Below, piece by piece: positions 2,649 to 47,688 of a DNA stretch of 61,990 nt. The DNA is from Akkermansia muciniphila. Its GTDB lineage: Bacteria > Verrucomicrobiota > Verrucomicrobiia > Verrucomicrobiales > Akkermansiaceae. The DNA is taken from positions 1-61,990 of the forward strand of contig CAMAYN010000001.1 of assembly GCA_945862285.1 (NCBI GenBank). The letters are read 5' to 3'. Positions within the stretch are counted from its first letter, which is position 1. Each line of letters starts with the position of its first letter. Position numbers and translations under genes: made by a program. The notes below the pieces were generated by a model. It saw nothing but the letters and a program-made list of their open reading frames with translations. It searched no databases and was not told the DNA's origin.

Positions 2649-2759
2649 ATTCGAGTTCAATTGTGCTGTCGTTATCCGCAACAGAATGAAACGTTCAAAA
2701 TATTTATCAAATGATATTTTTTCTTGCAGCCTGTATAGAATTTATTCACGTTGTTCATC

Positions 2760-3827
2760 ATGAACCATGTTACGATTCGATCTGTTTCTGAGCAAATTGC
2801 CGATTATATCAAGCTAGAAATTCAGTCGGGACGATGGGCGGAATTTTTCCCTGGGAGGAATGAATTAGCGAAGCAGTTTGATCAGGCGGTGATGAGTGTA
2901 GAAATGGCACTCCAGCAATTGGAAAAAGAAGGTTGGCTCATTTCTCAAGGAGCAGGGCGCCCACGCAAGGTTTTTAACCTAGCGGAATCGAATGGTGCGC
3001 ACAGTTTACGGATTGCGATCTTAATTTATGAACGTGAAGCCTATAGCGATGGGATTTATCCACGACTATTACACCTACTTAGGGAAGACGGTCACGATGC
3101 CTTTTTTGTCAATACAACACAGATGGAGTTAGGAGGGAGCATCAGGAAACTTTCTCGCATCGTTGACAAAATCAAGGCTGATGCGTGGATTTTGTGCACT
3201 TCTACAAGAGAGTTCGCCGCATGGTTCGCGCAGTCGGGGATTCCTGTTTTTGCCTTATTTGGCCGGCGTCGCGGCTTGCCGATCGCTAGTGCTGGACCCG
3301 ATAAGTCAACGGCGATTGCGGAGGCGACGAAGAAGCTGATTTCCCTAGGTCATGAGCGAATTGTGATGCTGGTGCGGGAGGATCGGCGACAACCTCATCC
3401 CGGGTATGTCGAGCGTGCGTTTCTGCGAGAATTAGAAAGGAACGGTCTGTTAAGTAGTAAATATCATTTGCCTGATTGGAAAGATGGGAGCGAAGGCTTG
3501 CTTGGAGTTCTTCAGAAAATTTTTGCGACCACACCTCCTACGGCACTGATTGTGGATGAGCTAGCAATACTTCTCGCCACGCAGCAGTTTCTGGCCAGCA
3601 AAACGATTCTCGTGCCGCGCGATGTATCTTTGGTGAGCATGGAATATGAAAATGTTTTTGCTTGGAGTTCTCCGATGATTGCTCATGTCAAATGGGACAT
3701 AGAATTTGTGCTCAAGAGGACAAGACAGTGGGCAAGAAATGTCGCAAAAGGGAAAAAGGATTTCAAAGAAACCAATACTCTAGCGGTATTTGTGGAAGGC
3801 GGGACGATTGCTATAGCAAAACGATGA
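2760..3827 (+). CDS. Transcriptional regulator: GntR-type winged-helix N-terminus fused to a LacI/periplasmic-binding-protein-like sugar-binding domain
   Basis: ORF 2751..3827; the first ATG is at 2760 (MNHVTIRS...). The N-terminus VSEQIADYIKLEIQSGRWAEFFPGRNELAKQFDQAVMSVEMALQQLEKEGWL is GntR-like. The remainder looks like a PBP type-1 fold (AILIYE..., DAWILCTS, ERIVMLV). It is divergent from the PATR gene and convergent with GH43. Confidence 0.7.
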   Translation: MNHVTIRSVSEQIADYIKLEIQSGRWAEFFPGRNELAKQFDQAVMSVEMALQQLEKEGWLISQGAGRPRKVFNLAESNGAHSLRIAILIYEREAYSDGIYPRLLHLLREDGHDAFFVNTTQMELGGSIRKLSRIVDKIKADAWILCTSTREFAAWFAQSGIPVFALFGRRRGLPIASAGPDKSTAIAEATKKLISLGHERIVMLVREDRRQPHPGYVERAFLRELERNGLLSSKYHLPDWKDGSEGLLGVLQKIFATTPPTALIVDELAILLATQQFLASKTILVPRDVSLVSMEYENVFAWSSPMIAHVKWDIEFVLKRTRQWARNVAKGKKDFKETNTLAVFVEGGTIAIAKR

Positions 3828-7601: not shown

Positions 7602-9629
7602 TTATGGTGCCACGGGAGTCAAGATGCCTGTTTTGGTAACGCCGTTTTCTGTCGCCACCACAAGGATCAGTCCGTTCGTAGATAGATCGATGGCTCTGAT
7701 GATTTGTAAATTGCTTCCCGCAGGTTTAGTGATCAGAGTGTTGAGATCGATGTATTTGCCATTTCTCCAGAGGGTTGGATTTTTCGGAATTTGAGCATCT
7801 GGGTCACCTTCTGTGATGGCTAGTCCTTGGGCATTTAATCGATGAGCACCCATTTTCATTGATGCGGGCTTATGCCAACGCGCCGTGCCTGTGCCGCCGA
7901 TGCGTTTTTCGAGCAAACACGCATCACCTGAGGTGATCCACAGCCGACTTGTGTCATCTTGTTTCTTGTTAATCGCCTCGCTCATTTCAGCGACTTCAAC
8001 GACTTGATTTGTCATGAAACTAAGTTCTGAAATGGCAGTGCCTTCTTTGAGCCAGATTTTTGATTGATAGCCGCCCGCATTCAGCGCTCTTCGTTCTACA
8101 CAGAGGGATCGATTTTGATCAAGAATCGCACCAGGGAAGGTCATGTTTTCATCAATTTCTTGTTCTAAATCCCGTACCGTTGTCATGCTGTAGGTATTGC
8201 CTGAACTGGCATAGTTCATCCAAATATTAAATCCTACGGGAGCGTGAGAGCAGAGAGCATTAATGGTGCCATCGTTGGCAATGCCGCCAAAGGTTTTTCG
8301 CGGTTCGAGAGCATTTTGGTAATAATTGTTATGTACAACTGAGCTGATTTCCCCTGCTGGAAATGGATATTGTGGGAAAAAATAATTAGGCGGGGCATAT
8401 TGCGTTTTGCTTGTGCCGCTGCGTTTCCAGACCATGCCAGGAATAAAGGGGTCGATCCTGCCGTAATTATCGCCCTTGCTGAGTCCAAAAATGACACCGT
8501 TGTCGTTGATGTCGATGAACTCAATCACAGGCTCGATTAGATCAAATTGTGTTTGATTTGCAGCTACATTAACCGTCTTGCCATTATAGCTCCAACTCAT
8601 CTCCCATTCGTTTGTGCCAATATTGATGTTTTGCTGACCACTGAGTTCCAAAGTGACCCATGTTTGCGATGCACTATCCCACAGGTTTTTTTGGTCGTTA
8701 ATCTGCATGCCGGTCAACCTGCCATCGCGGAAGAGAATTTGACCATCTTGGTTAATCGCAATCGGTTTATGCAAGGGTGAAATTTCGGTCACATGGGCTT
8801 GCCAAGTGTAGGTGAGAGCAGGGGTTTTTAGCCAATTGATTTCAGCGTCTGTCGGCACAGCATCTTGGCTATCGAGGAGAGTGTCGCCGTCGGTATCGGG
8901 GTTTTTCGGATCGGTGTTATCTTTCAGCTCTTGGAGGTTTAAGCTGCCATCGTTATCTGGATCGATGTCTAAAAGAATTCCAGAGATGCCATTCTGAACA
9001 AGTTCAGTAGTATGGTATTCAGCGAGATTTTGATCAGGAATATCAAGGAAAGATCTCGATTGATTTGGATCCAGCCTAAGGATCAGTTCATCAGCGTTAC
9101 TTAACCCATCTTCATCGGTGTCTTGGTCGAGAACTTTTACGCGCCAAAATAGACGTGGAGCAGCAGAATCGGTAGCGGTATTGGTGGTTTGTATGCCCAT
9201 GCATAACTGCTGATCGTTCGTGCCAGCCGCCATTAATGGTCCGACGTTTGCCCAAAACTTCATATCGGAACTTGTTTGGACTCGATAGACTTTACCCACA
9301 ATCACGGGCCATGCCAATTCGAAGCTGTTTTGTTGGAGCGCAGGCGTGATTTTCACTGCGGTTTTGCCAGTGACTCCAGATGCAGAGAACGGGTTCGTTC
9401 CTGCGAGACATTCTTGGGCATTTGTCCAGCCGTCTTGATCAGGATCGGCAGTAGGGGAATGAGTGGCGTTTGCATCGGAAAATAACACGAGGTTATTATA
9501 TTTCAGTTCCCATGCGTCGCTCAGAGTATTGTTGTTGCGGTCAACCATGCCTGCACTTGGTAGCACGCAGGAAAAAAGGAAGCCACTGATCGATACTCGT
9601 TGCAGAATCTTTTTGGAAGAGAAATTCAT
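7602..9629 (-). CDS. Secreted modular protein (675 aa): ~165-aa N-module shared with 42992..45658 (Asp-rich thrombospondin-type-3-like motif plus a small beta-rich unit), then a unique C-terminal region
   Basis: N-terminal hydrophobic leader. Contains ADPDQDGWTNAQECLAGTNPF and ELAWPVIVGKVYRVQTSSDMKFW...RLFWRVKV, plus further DxDxDG motifs (DPDNDGSLN, NPDTDGDTL). The C-terminus has recurring I-N-D-N-G / ANDGTI / STNGLI motifs reminiscent of HAF-type extracellular repeats (low certainty). The ATG overlaps the upstream stop in an ATGA at 9626..9629. Confidence 0.7.
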   Translation of the reverse strand: MNFSSKKILQRVSISGFLFSCVLPSAGMVDRNNNTLSDAWELKYNNLVLFSDANATHSPTADPDQDGWTNAQECLAGTNPFSASGVTGKTAVKITPALQQNSFELAWPVIVGKVYRVQTSSDMKFWANVGPLMAAGTNDQQLCMGIQTTNTATDSAAPRLFWRVKVLDQDTDEDGLSNADELILRLDPNQSRSFLDIPDQNLAEYHTTELVQNGISGILLDIDPDNDGSLNLQELKDNTDPKNPDTDGDTLLDSQDAVPTDAEINWLKTPALTYTWQAHVTEISPLHKPIAINQDGQILFRDGRLTGMQINDQKNLWDSASQTWVTLELSGQQNINIGTNEWEMSWSYNGKTVNVAANQTQFDLIEPVIEFIDINDNGVIFGLSKGDNYGRIDPFIPGMVWKRSGTSKTQYAPPNYFFPQYPFPAGEISSVVHNNYYQNALEPRKTFGGIANDGTINALCSHAPVGFNIWMNYASSGNTYSMTTVRDLEQEIDENMTFPGAILDQNRSLCVERRALNAGGYQSKIWLKEGTAISELSFMTNQVVEVAEMSEAINKKQDDTSRLWITSGDACLLEKRIGGTGTARWHKPASMKMGAHRLNAQGLAITEGDPDAQIPKNPTLWRNGKYIDLNTLITKPAGSNLQIIRAIDLSTNGLILVVATENGVTKTGILTPVAP

Positions 9630-10528
9630 TGGTCGCCTCCTTTCGCTGCGGGTGATTGTTCCGAGATTTCAGGAGAAATGGGACTTTCTGGAATCCAATA
9701 GCGGATGGTGATATCGGGCGAAGGGTCTGGCGGGTTCGCTTTTAATGCAGCGGCACGACGAGCATTCTCCAATGAAATCCGTTGGTATTCTGCGATAAAG
9801 CTTTTTCGGTGTTTTTTGTATAGCTCATGGAGGCCCTCAACAGCGGCCAAATCCTCTGGTGCCGGGTTCCCCGAAACAATCGTGAACGAAGGCTTCGCCG
9901 CCGCATTGCGGGGGAGTTCTGGTATGGTGGGAGCTACGTATTCGCGCTGCATGTTGCGAGCTTGTTGTGCCATTTTCGCACTGCTTTGATAATTCATCGC
10001 AAACATCACGCTGTGCTGGGTTTGTGCTTTGTTGAATGACTGGATGTGGGCGAAGTGACGGAAATCAACATTCGACCAAGCTTCGTAAAACTCCACGGGT
10101 GTCTTACCTTGGCTTGTCCATTTGATATGGCTACGAGTGAGGGATTTTTCATCGTCTCGAAAAACAGTGCATGAAAACATCGTGAATCGCGTTGTCATCG
10201 CCTGGGCTGCACGTGCCGTTTGATCTTCTGCTGAAAGTTGGGATTGTTGCTTTGGCTCGGGCTTGGGCAAGGGGTCGAGCTTTTTCGATTTCAACTCTTC
10301 AATTGTGAATGTCTGCTCAGGTCGGACAACGACGCGTCGGCTGACAATGTCTGCGGCATCAATTTGTAATTCTACAGCGGGAACTGCCGCCACCTCCGCA
10401 GTTACAGGAGATGGCGGAATGAGCTGTGCTTCGGATGTTGGCGTTACTTGCGCATGTGTCACACTTGTAACGTAGCCACTAAACAAAATCGTTACGATAC
10501 TTTGCAATTTCTTGTTCATATACTTCAA
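9626..10528 (-). CDS. Signal-peptide protein of unknown function (300 aa); partner gene translationally coupled to 7602..9629; paralogue of 45655..46557
   Basis: Leader MKYMNKKLQSIVTILFSGYVTSVTHAQ. The central block RFTMFSCTVFRDDEKSLTRSHIKWTSQGKTPVEFYEAWSNVDF and the tail ANPPDPSPDITIRYWIPE align closely with the 310-aa protein at 45655..46587. I recognise no known domain. Confidence 0.7.
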   Translation of the reverse strand: MKYMNKKLQSIVTILFSGYVTSVTHAQVTPTSEAQLIPPSPVTAEVAAVPAVELQIDAADIVSRRVVVRPEQTFTIEELKSKKLDPLPKPEPKQQSQLSAEDQTARAAQAMTTRFTMFSCTVFRDDEKSLTRSHIKWTSQGKTPVEFYEAWSNVDFRHFAHIQSFNKAQTQHSVMFAMNYQSSAKMAQQARNMQREYVAPTIPELPRNAAAKPSFTIVSGNPAPEDLAAVEGLHELYKKHRKSFIAEYQRISLENARRAAALKANPPDPSPDITIRYWIPESPISPEISEQSPAAKGGDQ

Positions 10529-12460: not shown

Positions 12461-15391
<2,931 letters not shown>

Positions 15392-34926: not shown

Positions 34927-34950
34927 GGAATTGCCGATCATCAGGCAGAT

Positions 34951-35742
34951 TCAGCACTCTAGCACACGACGGCGACGGCGCAATGTGTAGAGCAAAGCAC
35001 CTCCCATAGAAAGCAACGCTGTACTTGGTTCAGGAACGGTAATGCCAATATTGAAGCCTTTATTGCCCGTTGCGAGACTGGAATCACCGATGTTGCCAAA
35101 AACCACAGTGTAGGAGCCAGCATCGAGCAAGCGTGTTTCTGAAAGACTTGATCCACTACTATTGCTGCCGTTGGTCACAAAGCCGAGAGATGTGATGTTT
35201 TTATCCCATCCGCTGTTGAGAGACATGTTTGTTCCATCGTTGTTGTATGTGTGTGCATTTCCCCAAGTGTGATTCAGCGATTCACCAGCAAAAACAACAA
35301 AGCCGGGGCGCCCGTCGATGCTTTCATTTAATGGCGAAGTGGTAGGATTATCCCACGGAGTCATATCAAACGTCACATAGCTGGCCGCACTTAGCTCAAG
35401 CAGATACCATCTTGAAGTATGCCCCCAGCCTTGAGCGGTTCCTCCTGTTGTGTGGGTATTGCTGACATTCGAGTAGCTCCATCCCCCAGCAGTTATGGTA
35501 GTTGTGTATGTGGCGGAATCAGCATTGGTAAATGATACTTTGGCGAGATAGCCAAAGCGCGCGGTACCAGGTGTGCCATCGTTGACAGTGGTGGGATTCG
35601 CGCCATCCGTATCAACAGCGAGCGGATTGGTGTAACCAGACTTGGTCACGCCATCGAGCGTAAGAAATGTGTTAGTAATGGTAACTGCACCGTGGCTCAA
35701 GGAGCTTGATGCGATTAATGCGAGGATGTGTGTGTATTTCAT
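34951..35742 (-). CDS. PEP-CTERM-anchored secreted protein
   Basis: Signal peptide MKYTHILALIASSSLSHG. C-terminal VPEPSTALLSMGGALLYTLRRRRR is the PEP motif plus TM plus Arg cluster. Confidence 0.8.
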   Translation of the reverse strand: MKYTHILALIASSSLSHGAVTITNTFLTLDGVTKSGYTNPLAVDTDGANPTTVNDGTPGTARFGYLAKVSFTNADSATYTTTITAGGWSYSNVSNTHTTGGTAQGWGHTSRWYLLELSAASYVTFDMTPWDNPTTSPLNESIDGRPGFVVFAGESLNHTWGNAHTYNNDGTNMSLNSGWDKNITSLGFVTNGSNSSGSSLSETRLLDAGSYTVVFGNIGDSSLATGNKGFNIGITVPEPSTALLSMGGALLYTLRRRRRVLEC

Positions 35743-35772
35743 ATATTACTGTATTGTTTGTTGTTTCTCGTT

Positions 35773-38256
35773 TCACCAAGTGCGATGAAGGCGAAAAAAT
35801 TGTCGTGCTGGTTTTTCGGGATGATTTTGATAGATCTGCCAGTCAGAAAATGATGAAGAGCATTCGATAAACCAATCAAGATGGTGACTTTCTTTGACTG
35901 GGGAGAGCCATTCATCGATCTCCAATCGTGGTGGTGGAGTGTCTCGATTAAGAACACCATCTCCATTGCGGTCGATGGAGAATCGTTTGCCATTCCCCAA
36001 AGGCACTGCGAGAATGCGCAAGGAAGTGGATCTTTCCTCCAACTGCGCAGGGCTCAGCGCAGATGCATCGAGCGAATCAGGATGATACGTATTCGTAGCT
36101 GGGTGGTATAGAAAGCTAGTTGCCACGCCTTGAATCACGGCATGGGCTACTACATCACAGTGGCCAGCTTGTGCTTGTTGCTGATGAACAGATGAGAGCA
36201 TAGCCGAAACCTTACCAACAATCGGTTTGGTATCCGTCTCTGTACAAAGGAGAAATGCCATGACATCCGCTTCAGCATGGGGAATGGTAGAAAAGACATC
36301 TTGCCCGTATTCATGACCGCGTGGAATGTCATGCCCCGTGCCATCATGGGTGAATCCGTAGCCACTCAGTGTAGTGGCTTGCCAAGGAGTAAAGTGGATC
36401 TTTTTATAAACATGCTCCAAGGTTGAATTTTTAACTGGCTGCCGTGTGAGAACTGCGGAAAAATCGTCGAGTATGTGATTTGTTCCCCGCGCCCCTTCGT
36501 GACATACTGAGCAGACTTGTGCATCGTGAAAATGGCTCTGACCTCTCCGCGGATTCGCGCCAGCAAGTGTGATGGGGAGTGTGTTGTCGATCAATCTGTT
36601 AGGATTGGGGTGATTGCGCAGGGATTCAATGTAGGCGACGACTTTATCCATGTCAGCAGCGGGTAGTTCGCTACCTGCTTGGAGTTTTGCGAAGCTGGAA
36701 TTAAAGCCTTTGATGGTGGCAATGTCACCACGCCAATGGAATGGGCCCGAATTTTTGATGCCGCGTAGTGGCTGGGTAACCATCGGGCCTTTCATGGGAT
36801 GCATGATGCGATTGACCGCTTGTGGTTCTCCGATAGCGATGCCGAAGCCGGTGATGCTGCTCATTCGACCTACAGGATCTCCTAGATCCCATGCAATCCC
36901 ATCAATGTCGGCATCTAAGTGGCATGACCCACAGGCCACTGTGCCATTTCCAGAAAGTCTGGCATCAAAGAAAAATCCTCTGCCTTGTTGTTGGGCGATG
37001 GAAATGGGTTGATGACTAGACCATGGGAATTCCGCTATGACATGGTGCATCTTACCATGGATCAAGGAAATCGTTTGTGAGAGCTTGTTGTAGATCAATA
37101 GGTGTCCCGTCTGCGGATGAATACTGATGCCTCTCGGACCGCGCATTTGTGTAGGAAATGTGCTACGGAGATCAATGCGGGTGGTGATTTTTCCGAAGGA
37201 ATCGATGCGGGCGATGCGATCGGAGGCAAAAGCTGCAAGCCATGCGCCTTCTTCATCCGCCTGTACGGACATCGGTTGCGCGAGTGATAAGGATTTGTTT
37301 TCCTGCGATAATTGTGCCGCCGTAGCATGGGGATTTAAATTCCAAATTTCTGTGCCTTCTTCCGTCATGCGAGCGATTCGACTTTCCGAAAAAATTCCAT
37401 TTAAATTCGGTTCGAAGCGGATGAGGTTCTTTGCCTCTGCGGCTCCCACCCATAAGCTACCGTTCGCACCGCACGAGAGACTGAAAATGTTCGTTCCGAT
37501 ATTCTCTGTGTAACTGACAATTTGCTGAGTCTCTACGTTGATGTGGGCTATGTCGTGATCAATGACATCGTACGGAATCTGCGGATCAGAATCAGGCACC
37601 AGCAGTGCCACCTGTGGTGGTGGCGGAAGATCAGCGAGCCACGGCGCGGGTTGGGCGGGAGCTTGGCGGAAATGCAGCGCCGTGGTGTTATTGCCGGACA
37701 AAAGAACTGCTGCATGGATCATGGATTCATTGGCAGATACAGCCAGAGAGCGCGGAAAATTCCCTGCCACCGGGATCGAGCCAAGAGCTGCTCGCGTTGC
37801 TACATCATAAACGCGAATGCAATTTTGGCGTGCGCAACTGACAAAGGCCATTCCTTTTGCAAAAACGACATCCGCTGGCTCATCATCTACAGCGATGGTT
37901 TCAATGACCTGAAGTTTTGTTAGATCGATGATGCTAATCGAGTCGGAAACCTCATTTACCACCCATGCTTCACGATCATTTACGGCGCGGACGGTCACAG
38001 GTTCGATCCCCACGGGGATTTCTGCAATCAATGTAGGAACATTGTGTGGAGATACCGAATGGAAAACGGACAAGCGCCCCTCGGGGGTGTTGACAGCAAG
38101 CAAGCGATGCCCCGATGGAGTATGGTCGAGAGGATGACATAATCTACCTTCAAAGTGCGTAAAATCTTCACCCCAACACATCAATACAGAACAACACATG
38201 GCCGCAAGGGCTAGTGCATTTACTCTAATGAAAAATTGATTTCGGAGTATTGTCAT
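35773..38256 (-). CDS. Paralogous beta-propeller / di-haem cytochrome c peroxidase fusion
   Basis: Same architecture as 32296..34926 (FDARLSGNGTVACGSCHLDADIDGIAWDLGDP; AQVCSVCHEG; KNSTLEHV). Signal peptide begins at the internal ATG 38256 (MTILRNQFFIRVNALALAAMCCSVLMCWG). Ends RQFFRLHRTW. Confidence 0.8.
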   Translation of the reverse strand: MTILRNQFFIRVNALALAAMCCSVLMCWGEDFTHFEGRLCHPLDHTPSGHRLLAVNTPEGRLSVFHSVSPHNVPTLIAEIPVGIEPVTVRAVNDREAWVVNEVSDSISIIDLTKLQVIETIAVDDEPADVVFAKGMAFVSCARQNCIRVYDVATRAALGSIPVAGNFPRSLAVSANESMIHAAVLLSGNNTTALHFRQAPAQPAPWLADLPPPPQVALLVPDSDPQIPYDVIDHDIAHINVETQQIVSYTENIGTNIFSLSCGANGSLWVGAAEAKNLIRFEPNLNGIFSESRIARMTEEGTEIWNLNPHATAAQLSQENKSLSLAQPMSVQADEEGAWLAAFASDRIARIDSFGKITTRIDLRSTFPTQMRGPRGISIHPQTGHLLIYNKLSQTISLIHGKMHHVIAEFPWSSHQPISIAQQQGRGFFFDARLSGNGTVACGSCHLDADIDGIAWDLGDPVGRMSSITGFGIAIGEPQAVNRIMHPMKGPMVTQPLRGIKNSGPFHWRGDIATIKGFNSSFAKLQAGSELPAADMDKVVAYIESLRNHPNPNRLIDNTLPITLAGANPRRGQSHFHDAQVCSVCHEGARGTNHILDDFSAVLTRQPVKNSTLEHVYKKIHFTPWQATTLSGYGFTHDGTGHDIPRGHEYGQDVFSTIPHAEADVMAFLLCTETDTKPIVGKVSAMLSSVHQQQAQAGHCDVVAHAVIQGVATSFLYHPATNTYHPDSLDASALSPAQLEERSTSLRILAVPLGNGKRFSIDRNGDGVLNRDTPPPRLEIDEWLSPVKESHHLDWFIECSSSFSDWQIYQNHPEKPARQFFRLHRTW

Positions 38257-38363
38257 CGGGACATATCGAATCGGACAGCCATTACTATAGCGCGTAACAA
38301 CGATTCGGGAATGTGGCAAAATGCCGCACGTAGGGACTCTGGAAACACTTGTCCTAGGCTCGA

Positions 38364-40213: not shown

Positions 40214-41617
40214 TCAGCTACGCTCGACAGCTTGTGCTACTTGTAGCAACAGGGCTTCTTGCATGTGCGGGGTGATGATTTGTAGGCCGATGGGAAGCGG
40301 CGATGTAGGCAATGGCACGGAAATCGCGGGCAGTCCAGCGAGGTTCACAGGGATGGTGCAAACATCCGCCATGTAATCTTCTAACGGATTCGTGCAGCCA
40401 CCGATGAGGCGAGCGGGTGTTGGTGCCACAGGAGATAGGAGGGCATCAACTTTTTCAAAAGCTTGATCAAAGTCGCGACGGATCAGAGTGCGGACTTTTT
40501 GCGCCTTGGTGTAGTAGGCATCGTAGTAGCCAGAGGAAAGCACGTAGGTTCCTAAAATGATCCGCCGTTTAACTTCTGGGCCAAAACCTTCTTCGCGGGA
40601 GCGTTCGTAGAGGGATAAAATATCGGCAGGCGCGGATGCGCGATGACCGTAGCGTATGCCGTCGAAACGCGATAAATTCGATGATGCTTCAGCGGGTGCG
40701 ATGATGTAATAAGTAGCAACGGCGTAAGAGGTGTGTGGCAGAGAAACATCGATGATTTCGGCACCTTGATTCGCAAGTTGATCGATGGCTTTTTGCACAG
40801 CGGCGCGGACGGCGGGGTCGAGACCATCGGAGAAATATTCTTTCGGCAAGCCGAGTCGCAGGCCTTTGACACCTTTTTGTAAGTTGGCAGAAAAATCGGG
40901 CACAGCTACGGGAAGGGAAGTCGAATCTTGTGGGTCATGCCCAGCGATGGCTTGAAGCACCAGTGCGGCATCGGCAACTGAGCGCGTCATCGGACCGATT
41001 TGGTCAAGCGAAGAAGCGAAGGCGACGAGACCATAGCGGGAAACGCGCCCGTAGGATGGCTTTAAGCCAACGATGCCACAATGCGAGGCGGGTTGGCGAA
41101 TGGAGCCGCCGGTATCGGAACCAAGGGCAGCGGGGACGAAGTTTGCGGCAACGGCGGCGGCAGAGCCACCGGAAGAACCACCGGGGATGTGGTCAGGCGC
41201 TACGGGGTTGATGGTGCGGCGTAGGGCGGAATTTTCGGTAGAAGATCCCATGGCGAACTCGTCCATATTGGTACGGCCAAAGCAGATGGCACCAGCGGCA
41301 CGGAGTTTTTTAGTAACGCCAGCGTCATAGGGGGAAATGTATTTATTTTCTAACATTTTCGAGCCGCACGTACAAGGCTGGCCTAGAACGTTGATGTTGT
41401 CTTTGATCCCGATGGGCAGTCCACCTAAGGGTTGGGTGATGTCAGCATCGCGGGCGGCGGCGAGAATGGCTTCGGCATCAAGGGACAGAAAAGCCCCGAA
41501 GGAGGTGTCTTGTTGGGCGACGGCGGCGAGGCAGGATTCTGCGATATCGAGCGCGGAGAACTCGCCTTGTGTTAGACCGGCGCGGAGTTCAGTGAGTGTT
41601 TGCGTGTGAAGAGACAT
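40214..41617 (-). CDS. gatA: Glu-tRNA(Gln)/Asp-tRNA(Asn) amidotransferase subunit A
   Basis: Amidase signature GGSSGGSAAAVAA...GSDTGGSIRQPAS. 467 aa. Immediately downstream of gatC. Confidence 0.95.
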   Translation of the reverse strand: MSLHTQTLTELRAGLTQGEFSALDIAESCLAAVAQQDTSFGAFLSLDAEAILAAARDADITQPLGGLPIGIKDNINVLGQPCTCGSKMLENKYISPYDAGVTKKLRAAGAICFGRTNMDEFAMGSSTENSALRRTINPVAPDHIPGGSSGGSAAAVAANFVPAALGSDTGGSIRQPASHCGIVGLKPSYGRVSRYGLVAFASSLDQIGPMTRSVADAALVLQAIAGHDPQDSTSLPVAVPDFSANLQKGVKGLRLGLPKEYFSDGLDPAVRAAVQKAIDQLANQGAEIIDVSLPHTSYAVATYYIIAPAEASSNLSRFDGIRYGHRASAPADILSLYERSREEGFGPEVKRRIILGTYVLSSGYYDAYYTKAQKVRTLIRRDFDQAFEKVDALLSPVAPTPARLIGGCTNPLEDYMADVCTIPVNLAGLPAISVPLPTSPLPIGLQIITPHMQEALLLQVAQAVERS

Positions 41618-41656
41618 GGTGGGCAGGCTTGGTGAGGATGCGAAATGGAGAACGGA

Positions 41657-41950
41657 TTAGGCATCGGCGATCACTTTAGGAACGCGGATTTGTTGCTGAG
41701 CGTGGTCTGGGGCATTTTGGATCAAAGCTGATGCGGGCAAACTCGTGCCTGGTGTATCATCGCGCATCGGAGCAGAGACGGTCATAGCATTTGCCGTGGG
41801 TTCGATCCCACTGACATCGAGTGCGGAAAGTTCTTCCATATAGCCAAGGATCTCATCGAGTTGCTGGGTGTAAGAGAAGACTTCTTCCTCAGATAATTCA
41901 AGGCGAGCAAGTCGGGCAATGCGGTGGACATCGATGTGCGGCTGAGACAT
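41657..41950 (-). CDS. gatC: Glu-tRNA(Gln) amidotransferase subunit C
   Basis: Starts at the internal ATG 41950 (MSQPHIDVHRIARLARLELSEEEV...). About 97 aa, typical GatC length and motif. Sits upstream of gatA. Confidence 0.85.
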   Translation of the reverse strand: MSQPHIDVHRIARLARLELSEEEVFSYTQQLDEILGYMEELSALDVSGIEPTANAMTVSAPMRDDTPGTSLPASALIQNAPDHAQQQIRVPKVIADA

Positions 41951-42044
41951 GCGAGGACAGTAGAAGGGCAGGGGAGTCCTGCCAAGCATTTTGATCAACA
42001 AGTGTTGTTAGTATTCTTGAAAAGTCAATGATTGCCCAAATGTA

Positions 42045-43016
42045 TTAGTGAGGTAAACCCTCGAATAAGGTCGCAGCGTGTTTGTAGATTGGGTCATTTT
42101 TATCATCGATTTTATTTTTGATACTTTGTAGCTCCGAAAGCGATCCCGGACTGTTTTGTAATGCAATTTCATCTATTACCAATCTTCTTATACTTATATG
42201 CAAATCGTTTTCAAAAGTTTTGTAGAAAGTAAAAAGGTCTTGTTCATTCTTTATGTAACTTTTGCCAGTATAAATTGCTAAAGCTCTGTAAATCGGGTTT
42301 TTTGAATTTCCCATATTTTTCAACATATTTATGTTTTCTTCTTGAGATGAATTTTTGAATGGATTAACATCACTAGCAATTCTAGCTAAAAATATATCTC
42401 CTAATTGCGGTTCTTCTTTGGACATCCGTTCCTTAAAGAACTTATCAATGCCGGAATTATTTGTCTGTGAGTATAAAGCATAAACCGCGTACAATCCATA
42501 AGCGCCTGACATTTCATCATCAGTTAGCTTTGACGTGCTACTTCCTTTTCTCAATTCTTCTACAAATTTGCTAGAACTACGGAATAATACACTAAAGTCA
42601 ATATTCGCTATGTCAACAGTCACTTCAAAATCCTCAATCCAATACCTGCTTGCAAGTTGTGTCAACTTTTGCGAAGTTTTTGCAATATCCGATTCTTTTA
42701 GAATTGCAGAATTTAATTCTGCTAAAACTAATTTAGCGTAAGCAGGAATTTCTTGTAATGGAACTTCATTTCCAGTATCACTTATTGAGTTAGCGGTGGG
42801 TAATGGTCTTGTATCTTTCACAGAAATTCCATGAAAATCAAATTCCCTTAGAATGCTTTCATCAGCAATATTATTACCTGATTGTTGTCTTTTGAGTGAA
42901 GCCTCGCTTTGTGTTTTGGTAGTGCGATTTTCTTCAGAAATTTTTTCTTTCTTGCAAGATGACAAACCAGATAGAAACAGAGTAAGAATGATTATGGTGT
43001 TTGACGAATGGGCCAT
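42045..43016 (-). CDS. Lipoprotein of unknown function (323 aa), very AT-rich gene overlapping the end of 42992..45658
   Basis: Lipobox LFLSGLSSC after MAHSSNTIIILT. The predicted helical C-terminus looks repeat-like (NPIYRALAIYTG..., DPIYKHAATLFEG). My hand count is ~25 % GC in 42301..42400. 25-nt overlap with the upstream gene. Confidence 0.65.
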   Translation of the reverse strand: MAHSSNTIIILTLFLSGLSSCKKEKISEENRTTKTQSEASLKRQQSGNNIADESILREFDFHGISVKDTRPLPTANSISDTGNEVPLQEIPAYAKLVLAELNSAILKESDIAKTSQKLTQLASRYWIEDFEVTVDIANIDFSVLFRSSSKFVEELRKGSSTSKLTDDEMSGAYGLYAVYALYSQTNNSGIDKFFKERMSKEEPQLGDIFLARIASDVNPFKNSSQEENINMLKNMGNSKNPIYRALAIYTGKSYIKNEQDLFTFYKTFENDLHISIRRLVIDEIALQNSPGSLSELQSIKNKIDDKNDPIYKHAATLFEGLPH

Positions 43017-45658
43017 GACTGAAAAATTAGATAAGTATTTACGTAGTAATAGGGAGGTCCGTTATGCTTTGCACCTTTTATGACTGTTTTAATTGGAGCA
43101 CCTCCCTTGCTGTATGCTAAGGCCACCGATGTTGATCCATCCAAGAATAGTAACTCGATTTCATCAGCGCGGCCACCTGTTAGTTGTTTGACCCCTGATT
43201 TTTTAGCGTCATGGGCAAGATCCTTTCCTCTCCCCGTCCCAACTTCAGATGATGCACTAAATATAATACCTTTCGTAGCTTGCCCACTCTTATTGTAGTA
43301 GCCGATTGACTGAATTTCATTACCATCAGATTGCCGCTTATCGAAATTTGCTGATAAGCCTCCCATTCCAGATCGCGGATTTGCGGCGTTATTTGTAGAA
43401 CTTGAAGGTAGCACGCTTGCTCCCCAAGAGTAATTTCCCGTCGATAACTCTCTGATATAATTGCCACCTCGATCCCCATTAGGCATAGGCTCAGGACCAG
43501 CTAATGGACTGAAAGGATTACCATGAGCAGGTAAATGAGCATCGGATGATACAATTTGATCCAGAACCCCATTTCTTACAACCCTTCCATGGCAACGATC
43601 AGTTATATCGCCTCGAATTCCTGCTCCCGCAGGATTTCTGTCATCAATGAAAAAGCATTGATTTCCGTTTATAGTTACCGTAGCAGGGTAAGCAGCAATA
43701 ACTGCATCAATTCCTTTGAGTTGACCGCCATTAGCTCTCCTGGATGCGTCTATAGGAAAAAGTCTAGTCTGTTGTTCTAGCATAAAGACCAACCGAAATG
43801 TATCTGCACCGTAAGCACGCTGAACAACACATAGTGTCGTATTATTCTCCCTAATATAATCTTCAACTGTTTCAAAAAATCTAGAAGCACCAAATCTTTT
43901 AATAACGGTTAGGTCAAGTTTCAAAGAAGTCTGCACATCCTTGAATTCCCCATCGATTTTTTCACGAAATTTGAGAACAAGTTCTCCTTCTACTTGGGGA
44001 TTATCTGCGGGATAAGCTACATCAACATCAGCTCGTGCATAGATGATTTTTGGCAAAGGGTTGCTTCCACTCACCACAAACCGATTTCCTGTTTTTAGTC
44101 CAAGCGCGTCTTTGCATTCTGCTGTTTTGTAGAAAGTAAGTCGATCAATCCCAGGATGCTCTAGCCATATCTCGCCTTCTTCAATACCGCAAGTTATTGC
44201 GATCGCTTCTGCATCGTCGTCATTGATTTCACTTTTTGGACGATCTGGGTCTGAATCGCCAATGTCCCACTTGCCATTTGATAAATTATCATTCGCGAAC
44301 ATAAACTCCGTGCCCAATATTTTTGCATTACTACCTGCCGCTGCGCTCTGCGCGGCATCTCGTAAGGTGATGTCCTTGGTATCAATGACACCATCATTGT
44401 TTAAATCAGATAACAACTGAACAGGAATTGTTTTTGCATCGGCGACAAAAATTGTTCCCTGTTGGATCCCTGGTGATTCTTGAGGGGAAATATCAAGAGG
44501 AGCAGAATTCATCGCTCCCGCGCTAACATATTGTTCGAGTTTATCATAGGTAGTAATGAAACTTTCATTTTCATTGAAAATCCGATGGCGCACAATGAAG
44601 TGAAATTTGCTCTGAGCCTCTGCTAACTCGGGTAACACCGTCCAAATTCTTCTGGCTGACAGGTAAGCATTTTCGCTTCGTCCCTGTTCTTCCAATCTTT
44701 GAGTTGATTCAAACAAATTCGTCTCTTCTGGTTTTAGCTCATCTTCTGTCGGCAGATTGGGAAACGCTTTTAATGCTAGCATGTCGCGCAACTCTTGAAG
44801 AGTTTTGAAACTTTGAATCTCGCTCGTAACGTTGGTTTCATCCCAAGTTGCTAACGTAGTAACAAGGCCTTCTATTCCAGAAGAAGGGTTATTAGGTGTT
44901 GTATTATCATTACAACCATACTGCAAAGCCTTCAAGGCATTCACATGTCTGTATGGCATGCTTGCTGCTAGTATTGGATTTGAACCAAAGTGTTGTTCAT
45001 GTCCGTCATCAATGCCATCTCCATCTGTATCGGGATTCGTCGGTGAGGTTCCGGTAAGTATTTCCATTATATCGCTTATTCCGTCACGATCTGTATCCTT
45101 CAGTAATAAGTTTGTGCCAACAAGATATTCTTCATAGGTTGTCAAGTCGTCACTGTCTTCGTCGCGGTCTGTGACTTTTACGCGGTAAAACAACTTGGGT
45201 GGCGGAGCGGTGGTGTTGGTGTTTTCCGGGTCGGTCGCTTGAATGGCGATGGTGTGAGCGGTGTCGTTCGCTGCGGCATCGATGATTGGCCCGATGTTGA
45301 CCCAGAAATGGAGGTTGGTGCTGGCTTGAATACGGTAGTTTTTCCCGGGGATCACCGGCCAAGTGAGTTCGTAAGTTGCGGCGGTGGCGGTGGATTGGAT
45401 CGCGAGGGCAGTTTTCCCGTTTGAGCCATTGGCGGAGAAGGGATTTGTTCCCGCTAGGGCTTCTTGGGCGTTTGTCCAACCGTCTTGATCGGGATCGGCG
45501 GTCGCGGCGTGGGTGGCGTTACTCGCCTGAAAGAGTTGGCTGGTGTTGTATTGCTTTTCCCATACATCGCTTAGGCCGTTAGCGTTTGTGTCGAGGATGG
45601 CAAGGAGTGGGAAAATGCTGAAAATCTGAAACGCTAAAAAGCTGAAAATGGTTTTCAT
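42992..45658 (-). CDS. Secreted modular protein (888 aa): shared ~165-aa N-module, then a unique payload with Asp-rich Ca-binding-type motifs and a possible phosphodiester-glycosidase-like tail
   Basis: I place the start at ATG 45658 (MKTIFSFLAFQIFSIFPLLA), which forms an ATGA with the upstream stop. I do not use the track start at 45733. The N-module ADPDQDGWTNAQEALAGTNPF...ELTWPVIPGKNYRIQASTNLHFW...KLFYRVKV is homologous to 7602..9629. The tail has TINGNQCFFIDD...GRVVRNG and ELLFLDGSTSVALAY (weak NAGPA-like resemblance). Confidence 0.75.
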   Translation of the reverse strand: MKTIFSFLAFQIFSIFPLLAILDTNANGLSDVWEKQYNTSQLFQASNATHAATADPDQDGWTNAQEALAGTNPFSANGSNGKTALAIQSTATAATYELTWPVIPGKNYRIQASTNLHFWVNIGPIIDAAANDTAHTIAIQATDPENTNTTAPPPKLFYRVKVTDRDEDSDDLTTYEEYLVGTNLLLKDTDRDGISDIMEILTGTSPTNPDTDGDGIDDGHEQHFGSNPILAASMPYRHVNALKALQYGCNDNTTPNNPSSGIEGLVTTLATWDETNVTSEIQSFKTLQELRDMLALKAFPNLPTEDELKPEETNLFESTQRLEEQGRSENAYLSARRIWTVLPELAEAQSKFHFIVRHRIFNENESFITTYDKLEQYVSAGAMNSAPLDISPQESPGIQQGTIFVADAKTIPVQLLSDLNNDGVIDTKDITLRDAAQSAAAGSNAKILGTEFMFANDNLSNGKWDIGDSDPDRPKSEINDDDAEAIAITCGIEEGEIWLEHPGIDRLTFYKTAECKDALGLKTGNRFVVSGSNPLPKIIYARADVDVAYPADNPQVEGELVLKFREKIDGEFKDVQTSLKLDLTVIKRFGASRFFETVEDYIRENNTTLCVVQRAYGADTFRLVFMLEQQTRLFPIDASRRANGGQLKGIDAVIAAYPATVTINGNQCFFIDDRNPAGAGIRGDITDRCHGRVVRNGVLDQIVSSDAHLPAHGNPFSPLAGPEPMPNGDRGGNYIRELSTGNYSWGASVLPSSSTNNAANPRSGMGGLSANFDKRQSDGNEIQSIGYYNKSGQATKGIIFSASSEVGTGRGKDLAHDAKKSGVKQLTGGRADEIELLFLDGSTSVALAYSKGGAPIKTVIKGAKHNGPPYYYVNTYLIFQSWPIRQTP

Positions 45659-46557
45659 TGGCCACCTCCTTGCTGAGTTTGAGCTTCTTGTTGCTCTTGG
45701 AGTTTTTCTGCCATCGTTTTTTCGGGAGTCCAATAGCGGATGATGAGGTTAGGAGTTGGGTCGGGAGGGTTGGCGGCTAATGCAGCGGCACGGCGGGCGT
45801 TTTCTTCTTTGAGGGAGGCAGATTTAGCGATGAAAGCGGCGTGGTGCTGTTGGTAGAGTTCGTGCAGACCATCGAGGGCGGCGAGGTCGGTTTCATCGGG
45901 ATTCCCTTGGGTAATGGCGTAGGTGGGTTGCGTTGTGGAATCGGTGGGGAGTTCGGGAATTGATGGTGGGGTATAGGTTTTTCCTGCTTGTGCGGCGCGG
46001 GTGGCGGCTTGGGAATTAGATTGATCGCCAATGCCAAACATGACGTTGTGGGTAATGTTGGCTTTGTTGAAGGCGTGAAGATGGGTGAGGTGATGGAAGT
46101 TGACGTTTGACCATGCTTCGTAGAATTCGGTGGGAGTTTTCCCTTGGCTTGTCCAGCGGATGTGGGTGCGAGTGGTGCCGTTGGCCTCGTCGTGATGGAC
46201 GGTGCAGGAAAGCATCGTCATGCGGTGTTCGGTGCGATGAGCAATCCTTGCGGCACGAGCGGCTTGTTGTTCCGGTGTTACAGGTTCGGGGGTTGGAGCG
46301 GCATGTGGAAGAGGAATGTCTTGGGGGACGACTTCTTGAATGGTGATGGTTTGATCTGGGCGAACGACGGTGCGGGAAGAAATGATTTCATCTGGGGTGA
46401 TTTCGAGTTTTGGGGCGGCGGGAACAGCGGGCGCGCTAGGTGCTGCTTGCTCGGGGATGAGGGTGGCGGTCTCATCGGCATAGGTTGCAGGAAATAGATT
46501 GACCACGAAGAACGCGAGAGCGTAGAGGCGCGAATTTTGTAAGAGACTGATTTTCAT
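45655..46557 (-). CDS. Signal-peptide protein of unknown function (about 300 aa), paralogue of 9626..10528, translationally coupled to 42992..45658
   Basis: Likely start at ATG 46557 (MKISLLQNSRLYALAFFVVNLFPATYA). HRMTMLSCTVHHDEANGTTRTHIRWTSQGKTPTEFYEAWSNVNF and ANPPDPTPNLIIRYWTPE match the paralogue. Confidence 0.7.
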   Translation of the reverse strand: MKISLLQNSRLYALAFFVVNLFPATYADETATLIPEQAAPSAPAVPAAPKLEITPDEIISSRTVVRPDQTITIQEVVPQDIPLPHAAPTPEPVTPEQQAARAARIAHRTEHRMTMLSCTVHHDEANGTTRTHIRWTSQGKTPTEFYEAWSNVNFHHLTHLHAFNKANITHNVMFGIGDQSNSQAATRAAQAGKTYTPPSIPELPTDSTTQPTYAITQGNPDETDLAALDGLHELYQQHHAAFIAKSASLKEENARRAAALAANPPDPTPNLIIRYWTPEKTMAEKLQEQQEAQTQQGGGQ

Positions 46558-46953
46558 GATTTTGTGGGAAAAGTTATCATTCCGCACTGGCGGACGGGGA
46601 GTTCAAAAGTCGCTTACAGACGACCGCAACGGCCTTTGGCCTCCCTCAGAAGGCAAAACCTAAAGAAAGCGGCTTGGACATGCGCCGCTGCCTCCCCGGC
46701 CTTTCGACTAGTTTGGCAGCAATGTTTGCGGTCATTGCTAACCGCTGTAAGAGAAGATTTTGAAGTCCTCATCCGCAATGCGGACAGGACTAGAATAGGC
46801 AGATATGTGATCGCGGCAAGCTATTTGTTCTTTCCGTAGAAATTTTTTGACTGTTGAAGAATCGCATCTGGACACTGCGAGGGCGTTATGCTATTCCTCT
46901 AGTGTAATCGAAAAGTATTTCGCTTACGTATTTCACATCAACTAAAACAAAAA

Positions 46954-47427
46954 ATGAACACATTAAACCGTATATCCGCCACTCTGACAGCCGCAGAAGT
47001 GACCACATTACTAACCAAGATCAATGAGGTGAAAAATGCCTTGCCATTTCTCATCGATCTTTCACCAGAAGAACGCCGCACCTTTCCTAAGATGGGCGAT
47101 AAGTCCGTCGCCTTTGTGAGTCGTTGCGTAGAAATCGCGCAAAGGGATGACTCTTTTCTGCCCAAAAAATTCGATGTCACAGAGTTTGCCGAAGACCACG
47201 CCCTAAGCGTGGCATTAGAGCCGATCCGCCAGCAACTTGCACAATTGCTAGAGCTAGTCGAGGATACTCAATTGCTCGCTGGTTCGGAGGCTTACATCGG
47301 AGCCTTGGAAGTTTATAATAGTGCACAGCGCTCTGGGCAAGGTCTTGGCTTAGACGACCTGATTGATCAACTCGGGATGCGCTTCGTCCGCCGTAGGAAA
47401 GAAGCTGAAGACTCTAAAACACCCTAA
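46954..47427 (+). CDS. Unknown 157-aa protein (family A), paralogue of 55055..55498
   Basis: ATG at 46954. LPFLIDLSPEERRTFPKMGDKSVAFVSRCVEIAQ and the C-terminal GLGLDDLIDQLGMRF align with the 55-kb copy. Followed by a strong terminator. No domain recognised. Confidence 0.65.
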   Translation: MNTLNRISATLTAAEVTTLLTKINEVKNALPFLIDLSPEERRTFPKMGDKSVAFVSRCVEIAQRDDSFLPKKFDVTEFAEDHALSVALEPIRQQLAQLLELVEDTQLLAGSEAYIGALEVYNSAQRSGQGLGLDDLIDQLGMRFVRRRKEAEDSKTP

Positions 47428-47460: not shown

Positions 47461-47498
47461 GCTCCTGCTGTGAGAAAAATCGCGGCAGGAGCTTTTTT
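47461..47498 (+). terminator. Rho-independent terminator after the family-A gene
   Basis: Stem GCTCCTGCTG / CGGCAGGAGC (47461..47470 and 47483..47492; one G-T pair), 12-nt loop, then TTTTTT at 47493..47498. Confidence 0.75.
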
Positions 47499-47688
47499 CT
47501 CGGGAGTTCGGCCTTTTTACTCGAAAGTTCAGCCTTTTTGCTCGGAAGATCGACCTTTTTACTCGGAAGATCGGCCATTTTGCTCGGAAGATCGACCTTT
47601 TTGCTCGGAAGATCGACCTTTTTGCTCGGAAGATCGGCCTTTTTGCTCGGAAGCTCGACCTTTTTGCTCGGAAGTTCGCCCTTTTTTG
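47493..47688. repeat. Tandem array B: 9 units of exactly 21 bp (TTTGCTCGGAAGATCGACCTT)
   Basis: The CTCG core recurs at 47499, 47520, 47541, 47562, 47583, 47604, 47625, 47646 and 47667, a constant 21-nt spacing. The array starts on the terminator T-tract and ends ~125 nt upstream of the AlkP-family gene. Confidence 0.95.

Follow-up and report, generated by a model that had tools for sequence, protein, structure and literature searches.

The three-gene locus and its products

The subject of this analysis is a gene trio carried by a 61,990-nt stretch of DNA from Akkermansia muciniphila (contig CAMAYN010000001.1, positions 1 to 61,990; the window, below, means this whole stretch). Between 42045-46587 the list of open reading frames (ORFs) holds three tightly packed frames on the minus strand, encoding an exported protein of about 300 amino acids (aa) that is called here the partner, a modular protein of 888 aa (the effector) and a lipoprotein of 323 aa. 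Judged from its sequence, the system to which this trio appears to belong looks like an undescribed relative of interbacterial toxin/immunity weapons. The genes, their overlaps and the segments of the effector are as follows:

45655-46587, minus strand: maximal partner ORF, 310 aa from a GTG at 46587
45655..46557, minus strand: partner gene, 300-aa exported protein with the signal peptide MKISLLQNSRLYALAFFVVNLFPATYA followed by DE
45655..45658, minus strand: ATGA overlap of the partner stop and the effector start, read from the sequence
42992-45658, minus strand: effector gene, 888 aa
45599..45658, minus strand: effector signal peptide, aa 1-20, MKTIFSFLAFQIFSIFPLLA
45149..45598, minus strand: N-module of the effector, aa 21-170, GC 54.5%
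44444..45148, minus strand: linker or stalk, aa 171-405, a TSP3_bac repeat (aa 210-229) and a middle module, GC 41.8%
43859..44443, minus strand: first half of the tip, aa ~406-600, beta domains of Ig-like type, similar to those at the N-terminus of peptidylarginine deiminase (PAD)
42995..43858, minus strand: second half of the tip, aa ~601-888, NAGPA/DUF2233-type fold, end ...YYVNTYLIF..., GC 43%
43127..43141, minus strand: D-G-x-x-S loop (D840-G-S-T-S844), suggested counterpart of the NAGPA DGGGS loop by motif and fold position
42992..43016, minus strand: 25-nt overlap of the effector 3' end and the lipoprotein start, read from the sequence
42045-43016, minus strand: lipoprotein gene, 323 aa

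The ATG at 46557, which gives a partner of 300 aa and is used in the gene call of the source contig, is the more likely start of the first gene. The junctions are those described in the initial annotation: the partner stop and the effector ATG share an ATGA at 45655-45658, which suggests translational coupling of partner and effector, and the end of the effector gene overlaps the start of the lipoprotein gene by 25 nt (42992-43016). Export signals were found on all three products (3/3), of the signal peptidase I (SPase-I) type on the partner and the effector and a lipobox on the third protein, which starts MAHSSNTIIILTLFLSGLSSC and has, as had been stated, a lipobox cysteine (L18-S-S-C21). The lipoprotein also carries the family motif N240-P-I-Y-R244-A-L-A and matches no Pfam or NCBIfam family; scans of the three locus proteins against Pfam, NCBIfam and PADLOC returned only the TSP3 repeat.

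Modules, tips and companion genes

The effector is a mosaic: its signal peptide and 150-aa N-module are followed by a Ca-binding TSP3 repeat, a middle module and the tip of 475 aa. The N-module comprises two TSP3/dockerin-like Ca-loop motifs (DTNANGLSD and DPDQDGWTNAQE) and a beta-sandwich-like segment (ELTWPVIPGKNYRIQASTNLHFW), and the mature N-terminus left by signal-peptide cleavage, ILDTNxNGLSDxWEKQ, is near-identical across the family. A search with the whole 888-aa protein recovered about 30 proteins (674-1553 aa) with this module, always in N-terminal position; its aa identity reaches 85% with P0001, 51% with a 675-aa paralogue encoded elsewhere in the window and 28-71% with about 30 others. 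Past aa ~170 these proteins are mosaics in which middle modules common to several members lead to C-terminal ends of at least six unrelated classes, among them a zinc protease (HExxHxxxGxGH), the PAD catalytic domain, matrixin, DUF1800 and ends rich in LamG. The middle module of the window protein is common to members with other tips (P0030, P0050 and P0001), and P0130 and P0029 share 81% identity over the 569 aa after the N-module and then carry different end domains. Homologues of the N-module thus do not always end in the same C-terminus, and because their C-termini are varied, the idea of a swappable payload put forward in the initial annotation survives. One part of that idea has to be changed, since the payload after ~165 aa, described as one unit, does swap but is composite, and the mobile tip proper is limited to aa ~406-888.

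The fall in GC content along the locus, estimated before by hand, was reproduced by computation, by segment and at third codon positions (GC3). The three 100-nt samples gave exactly the hand-counted values (0.56 for 45301..45400, 0.43 for 43501..43600 and 0.25 for 42301..42400). By segment, GC is 54.5% in the N-module (GC3 65%), 41.8% in the middle part (aa 171-405), 43.0% in the C-terminal unit (GC3 31%) and 34.2% in the lipoprotein gene (GC3 27.5%), the last of these lying 5 standard deviations under the mean because the remaining 37 window genes average 50.2 +/- 3.1% GC and 51.2 +/- 4.8% GC3. When the window is aligned with a related locus from the same sample (L001), DNA identity is ~93% from 46417 to ~45460, 77-83% to ~45160 and at background (~50%) past there, and the GC fall and the homology breakpoint coincide at ~nt 45160. 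A gradient with flank and partner about equal, then N-module, payload and downstream gene in falling order, was found in nine loci from genomes of 46-68% GC, in which the downstream gene lies 10-25 GC points under the flanks.

The 675-aa protein belongs to a second set of such genes in the window:

9626..10528, minus strand: second partner gene, 300 aa, 48% identical to the first partner
7602..9629, minus strand: gene of the second N-module protein, 675 aa, unrelated C-terminal part

The window has therefore two partner/N-module pairs, since the 675-aa gene is preceded by a partner paralogue, on which the initial annotation was silent; the partner gene (9626-10528) and the 675-aa gene overlap by 4 nt. 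The homology between the 888-aa and 675-aa proteins, said before to be confined to the N-terminus, is indeed so confined, with 42% identity over aa 6-221 including the TSP3 repeat and no similarity beyond. The C-terminal part of the 675-aa protein matched no family. The window is part of a 63-kb metagenome contig of ENA sample ERZ27280300, and two more loci, L001 and L012, lie on other contigs of that sample. Partner and N-module of L001 have 94% and 85% identity with their window counterparts, and the L012 locus is also present in assembly GCA_945888515.1. If the window, L001 and L012 contigs belong to one genome, there are at least four copies of the system per genome. The L012 copy (1-3768) is a fourth partner/N-module/small-gene locus, with a 739-aa protein (P0008) and a 197-aa lipoprotein, and adjoins a Wadjet-type JetA/JetB/JetC defence operon.

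A partner homologue lies directly 5' of every N-module gene for which upstream DNA is available, and the overlap of the two genes (ATGA or GTGA) recurs in 10/10 related loci, so that the question whether the ~300-aa partner always precedes the N-module gene is answered with yes for these 10/10 loci. The most divergent partner, that of L007, is matched at E 5e-7 by a hidden Markov model (HMM) built without L007. The protein has a central domain with the conserved sequence RWTSQGKTP.EFYEAWSNV, linkers rich in Pro, and a helix at the C-terminus that closes with NPPDP.P..I.YW; its signal peptide is of the SPase-I type, with no lipobox, and it is not a lipoprotein. It matched no Pfam, NCBIfam or PADLOC family and no POTRA or beta-barrel family, and neither its sequence nor its profile found a match in the PDB. 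A profile scan of genome contigs with the partner returned a single locus, the DNA patterns used being narrow. Tip-bearing proteins that have no N-module have no partner gene ahead of them; the partner goes with the N-module, as the third gene goes with the tip. As a separate observation, the partner gene appears interrupted by a frameshift or premature stop, with the effector intact, in L004 (215-1047), L016 (3241-4004) and L011 (3985-5004), which could reflect assembly errors or decaying partners.

The tip was delimited by an exhaustive HMMER search with aa 235-888 as query, in which 171 cluster representatives were matched (147 at E <= 1e-10), all of them over aa ~410-885 only, a unit of 475 aa. 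This unit is essentially always found at the extreme C-terminus, in proteins of 450-3395 aa that end in ...NTYLxFxSxKPR and whose N-terminal parts are built from TSP3, LamG, Big, CHB_HEX_C, Fn3_assoc, RCC1 and FG-GAP modules; Pfam scans of 27 tip-bearing relatives detected no Rhs, filamentous hemagglutinin (FHA)/two-partner secretion (TPS), PAAR or other known trafficking markers. No Pfam model matches the tip unit itself. In comparisons with PDB sequences the payload and the tip profile gave nothing significant, the tip profile showing only a dockerin-like Ca-loop similarity (E > 0.2). The first half of the tip has invariant Ca-loop-like motifs (SDLNNDGxIxxxD, LSNGxWD and DDDD).

An AlphaFold2 model of the tip built from 19 sequences reached a predicted local distance difference test score (pLDDT) of 87.4 and a predicted template modelling score of 0.89. 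Foldseek comparison of its last ~300 residues with the PDB gave the DUF2233 structure 3ohg (E 3e-7, probability 1.0) and the catalytic domains of NAGPA, the vertebrate 'uncovering enzyme', in 6u11, 6pku and 6pki (E 2e-6 to 1e-4, probability 1.0), and the tip model (pLDDT 87) displays the three-subdomain alpha/beta fold of the NAGPA catalytic core. The first ~190 residues matched the N-terminal Ig-like domains of PADI4, PADI2 and PADI6, with E from 4e-4. The catalytic loop of NAGPA is an invariant DGGGS in which the catalytic Asp comes first (PMC13474241). Across 28 tip sequences D840 and S844 never vary and G841 hardly does, in the context LFLDGSTSVAL; the window loop reads DGSTS, and some tip relatives have exactly DGGGS. 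Motif and position in the modelled fold suggest that the loop D840-S844 corresponds to the NAGPA loop. The loose resemblance of the tail to a phosphodiester-glycosidase fold noted in the initial annotation gains support because structure and motif agree: it is borne out by the Foldseek structure matches and the D-G-x-x-S motif, and by no sequence model.

With the lipoprotein as query, a word-indexed homology search had no match other than the query, and only gene neighbourhoods led to its relatives. The neighbourhoods of tip-bearing homologues revealed the gene trio elsewhere too, and the downstream proteins in them are homologous to one another and 22-24% identical to the window lipoprotein (pairwise BLAST E 1e-7 to 1e-8), share the motif (S/G)KNP(I/V)YR(A/L)LAL and have a lipobox in most cases. 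A metagenome scan with the tip alignment yielded 32 loci, 28 of them with DNA past the tip stop, and in each of these (28/28) a gene for an exported protein starts -56 to +43 nt from the tip stop. An iterated HMM assigned the follower to a family that includes the window lipoprotein (family A1) in 21/28 loci and matched 0 genes downstream of other tip classes. A second family (A2), whose members are 34-62% identical among themselves, is found in 4 of these loci and in L004; the remaining followers are two genes for a membrane protein of 153 aa and one that could not be classified. A2 is unrelated to A1 (hhalign probability 5%), and the tips linked to it form one clade in a neighbour-joining tree of tips. 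The zinc-protease tips (L001, L016 and L017) are followed by a third family (family B), with a signal peptide and a C-terminal transmembrane helix (30-37% identical), and hhalign found no relationship among A1, A2 and B. The window lipoprotein is, as its sequence indicates, a divergent member of a tip-linked family and not an orphan, and it is a candidate tip-specific protector, either an immunity protein or an inhibitor. Whether the lipoprotein gene is co-inherited with the payload, a point raised at the outset, can be answered in the affirmative, A1 being the follower of the tip at 21 of the 28 metagenome loci.

Tip and downstream gene travel together as a low-GC cassette between different N-terminal backbones. 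In L010 the tip frame opens a few codons before the domain, without a start codon or signal peptide, and a lipoprotein gene (lipobox IVGC) overlaps the tip stop; the pair sits between two tandem units:

L010 429-5178 and 10429-13407: two units in tandem, both of which contain a Toprim/DnaG-type primase of ~885 aa together with phage-type integrases

The start-less tip and its lipoprotein gene, placed between primase/integrase units, therefore constitute an orphan cassette on a mobile element; the GC content is 67% in the tandem units and 58-59% in the cassette.

Relation to known systems and competing explanations

Polymorphic toxins, in the operational definition of Zhang et al. (2012; PMC3482391), combine a conserved N-region, unrelated C-domains, downstream immunity, a toxic tip and orphan cassettes. 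The conserved N-region with alternative C-domains is seen here in ~30 proteins with at least six classes. A gene specific to the C-domain, a candidate immunity gene, lies downstream, a follower being present in 28/28 loci and at least three follower families tracking tip class or clade, and orphan cassettes and signs of horizontal exchange are seen in L010 and in the low-GC payload and follower of 9 loci.

The closest precedent for the gene order is found in Neisseria, where mafA lies directly 5' of mafB and export of MafB needs the outer-membrane protein MafA; MafB combines a signal peptide with the conserved DUF1020 and variable toxic ends, and mafI comes next (PMC7738311). Section 37 of Zhang et al. 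(2012; PMC3482391) noted the pairing of MafA with MafB-N and similar lineage-specific N-domains. The initial annotation held that a dedicated partner gene is part of no described system, which needs correction because the mafA/mafB precedent exists (PMC7738311; also in that section of PMC3482391). The likeness to Maf extends to a ~300-aa exported partner, a toxin (in the window a putative one) with a Sec signal, a lineage-specific N-domain and a variable C-terminus, and a tip-specific third gene. Additionally, both show several islands per genome and orphan C-terminal cassettes, and in both the partner is little polymorphic whereas tip and companion vary (PMC7738311, PMC4287609 and PMC3482391). 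On the other hand, the 888-aa and 675-aa proteins have no DUF1020 (PF06255) match at Pfam E <= 0.1, and MafA is a lipoprotein whereas the window partner has a SPase-I signal and no Pfam or NCBIfam family, a comparison made through family models and signal types and not with a MafA sequence itself. Maf tips are small and act in the cytoplasm (mostly nucleases) with cytoplasmic immunity, unlike the large hydrolase-like tips and exported companions found here, and the hosts differ (Neisseria versus a Verrucomicrobia-type host). Membership in Maf is unsupported, because DUF1020 is missing, the partner is neither a lipoprotein nor matched by a family, and tips and companions are of other kinds.

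With Rhs and contact-dependent inhibition (CDI) systems the locus shares a conserved N-terminal part, a variable tip with a cognate downstream gene, a sharp breakpoint and orphan cassettes. In Rhs, tip and companion are lower in GC than the conserved part, as at the window locus. However, no YD/Rhs repeats, PAAR or PxxxxDPxGL-ended core and no RHS-type Pfam match were found in the effector and 27 relatives, and in comparison with CDI no TPS domain, FHA repeats, VENN/pre-toxin motif or Omp85 partner was detected. That marker domains of Rhs, CDI and MafB are absent, as had been noted by eye, agrees with the Pfam and NCBIfam scans.

The tip is like the NAGPA/DUF2233 domains (PF09992; 3ohg, 6pki, 6pku and 6u11) in the fold of aa ~601-888 and, as motif and fold position suggest, in the D-G-x-x-S loop, and differs from them by its fusion to PAD-like Ig domains, its constant C-terminal position and its exported companion gene. 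NAGPA domains have been predicted in conflict proteins of Bacillota, next to TelC-like domains (PMC12419801). Hydrolase effectors aimed at the envelope, with adjacent periplasmic or lipoprotein immunity, are described in PMC6193138 and PMC3792639 (Tle/Tli, Tae/Tai, Tse3/Tsi3 and, with a lipid II phosphatase, TelC/TipC). The window locus resembles these type VI and type VII secretion systems (T6SS and T7SS) in having a hydrolase effector, as predicted, beside a gene for a periplasmic or lipoprotein immunity-type protein; unlike theirs, the window effector shows no T6SS or T7SS marker, bears a Sec signal peptide and comes with a partner gene of its own. No description of the tip family, its companions, the N-module or the partner was found in the literature. 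Among the leads that were set aside, the pilus-like protein Amuc_1099 (NF042425) scored 12-40 bits against a cut-off of 50 and only at model positions ~121-151, a TSP3-like motif, and the matches to MtsD and CglD covered only the TSP3 motif.

Taken together, these comparisons make it moderately probable that the locus is one of a multi-copy, lineage-specific polymorphic effector/immunity system with a Maf-like gene order and unrelated sequence. This interpretation is supported for architecture and evolution; toxicity, target and export route we infer. In the proposed mechanism the partner would recognise the N-module in the periplasm and carry the effector across the outer membrane or fix it there, in the role that MafA has for MafB, and the TSP3 and middle modules would form a Ca-stabilised stalk that presents the tip outside the cell. 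The tip may hydrolyse a sugar-1-phosphate linkage in an envelope component of a competitor; candidate substrates are undecaprenyl-pyrophosphate-linked precursors, an attractive but speculative choice modelled on colicin M and TelC, or surface polymers with phosphodiester links. The lipoprotein would bind and neutralise the tip in the envelope of the producer (periplasm or outer membrane), and recombination past aa ~170, or at later module borders, would swap tip and protector together. That every companion family is exported fits a tip whose danger lies in the envelope and not in the cytoplasm. The more specific version, in which partner and N-module constitute an outer-membrane export or display pathway of Verrucomicrobia-type bacteria, independent in origin but comparable in function to MafA/MafB and two-partner secretion, for a NAGPA-like envelope toxin that would cleave sugar-1-(pyro)phosphate linkages (as in undecaprenyl-linked cell-wall precursors) and be neutralised by two unrelated exported immunity families, is offered tentatively and is rather unlikely in all its parts.

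Several observations weigh against an effector/immunity system. The window's other pair, that of the 675-aa protein, lacks both a third gene and the fall in GC; genes for an aldehyde dehydrogenase and an aminotransferase come next, and the pair stands in conserved synteny in a metagenome-assembled genome of Verrucomicrobiaceae (JAIYDP010000024):

L003 9869-12870: syntenic orthologue of the second pair, with partner, 663-aa protein and aldehyde dehydrogenase

The N-module family is therefore not exclusively of the toxin/immunity type, and the polymorphic-toxin-like architecture proposed in the initial annotation stands in part: conserved module, swappable payload and payload-specific gene are recurrent, but the 675-aa pair has no third gene. 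Additionally, no known toxin, pre-toxin (VENN, HINT, PAAR, Rhs, TPS or DUF1020) or immunity family was detected with Pfam, NCBIfam and PADLOC. The kinship with NAGPA is by structure only (target-normalised TM ~0.5, 10-16% identity), PF09992 of Pfam has no match on the effector at E <= 0.1, and the AlphaFold2 model of the partner made from the two window paralogues is unusable (pLDDT 36). A tip of 475 aa and a protector of ~300 aa are large for a toxin/immunity pair, there is no evident route for a Sec-exported protein into a target cell, and a tip-specific companion gene is equally expected for a secreted hydrolase with a dedicated periplasmic inhibitor.

This last arrangement, a secreted enzyme with its cognate periplasmic inhibitor, is the main and a serious rival. 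The C-terminal units, or heads, would then belong to secreted or surface-displayed degradative enzymes for nutrient or matrix processing, N-module and partner would export or anchor a stalk whose head (glycosidase, protease or deiminase) works on polymers of the environment or of a host, and the companion would be a head-specific periplasmic inhibitor or maturation factor, for which the inhibition of serralysin-type proteases by Inh/AprI is a model. Without exception the heads resemble hydrolases or are binding domains, as is usual in extracellular enzymes, other tip-bearing proteins have N-parts of adhesin or carbohydrate type (LamG, CHB_HEX_C, Fn3_assoc and Big), export signals are present, heads and companions are large, toxin marker domains were not found, and the 675-aa paralogue is without a companion and vertically conserved. 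Yet the head and companion cassettes are compositionally foreign in nine genomes and swapped at sharp breakpoints, a start-less orphan lies within integrase/primase repeats, and unrelated companion families track tip subclades; such features are typical of arms-race loci more than of metabolic enzymes, although none is decisive. The enzyme explanation is given a fairly low probability.

It is improbable that the proteins are Ca-binding surface adhesins or cohesion proteins of the TSP3/LamG type, like MtsD or CglD of Myxococcus, with C-terminal units that bind rather than catalyse and with partner and lipoprotein as assembly or anchoring components. TSP3 repeats occur throughout the family, the lipoprotein could serve as an outer-membrane anchor, and there are weak NCBIfam matches to MtsD, CglD and Amuc_1099; these matches, however, span only a TSP3 motif of 20-70 residues and fall far short of the family cut-offs (27 bits against 800, 26 against 400 and 40 against 50). 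Catalytic motifs are retained in the heads (D-G-x-x-S, HExxH...H and the PAD catalytic domain), and an anchor ought to go with the N-module, which is conserved, and not with the tip, which varies. A chance arrangement or annotation artefact, with unrelated ORFs and a GC dip from a recent insertion without functional coherence, has nothing but the compositional heterogeneity in its favour and is extremely improbable, as the tip model is confident and the three-gene order, the overlaps and the co-variation recur in >15 independent loci from different samples and genomes.

Interbacterial weaponry in Verrucomicrobiota and their relatives is almost uncharted, and marker-based surveys would miss this locus. 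If the effector/immunity interpretation is true, the N-module would be a new trafficking module with a dedicated partner and a second, independent case of the MafA/MafB principle, and the tip a new polymorphic-toxin fold (NAGPA-like plus PAD-like Ig domains), probably acting on phosphodiester-linked envelope sugars. The exported companions would make up three or more new protein families, and cassette exchange would gain a clean example from nature in which a GC gradient marks the event. If instead the proteins are enzymes with inhibitors, modular secreted hydrolases with head-specific inhibitors would likewise be undescribed for the phylum. Systems of such a kind in Verrucomicrobiota would not astonish a specialist; the partner-dependent module, the NAGPA-like tip and the companions are concrete and testable, and profiles of N-module, partner, tip and companions could locate such systems in metagenomes.

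Surroundings of the locus and additional observations

The locus is surrounded by ordinary housekeeping genes (gatC/gatA, a two-component system, a phosphodiesterase and a helicase), with gatC directly 3' of it, and the window itself has no orphan cassette. Promoter and terminator scans and a repeat search over 41600-47100 gave nothing above chance. Beyond this interval, at 47492-47686, a 21-nt tandem repeat of 9.3 copies (88% match, unit CTTTTTGCTCGGAAGATCGAC) lies between a family-less 157-aa gene and the phosphodiesterase gene and is also readable as an ORF of EDRPFCS repeats.

Elsewhere in the window, 12461-15376 (minus strand) encodes a 971-aa NAD-dependent DNA ligase, LigA, with a Kinase-PolyVal domain (PF18762, E 1e-10, aa 284-418) between its Ia and adenylation domains, an insertion that is unusual for LigA. 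Additionally, two paralogous proteins of 848 and 881 aa with faint matches to lactonase/Vgb-lyase and to CCP_MauG cytochrome c peroxidase are encoded at 32296-38319 (minus strand; L002 14818-20721), where their genes flank a family-less 263-aa gene and adjoin a gene with an N_methyl (pilin-like) signal.

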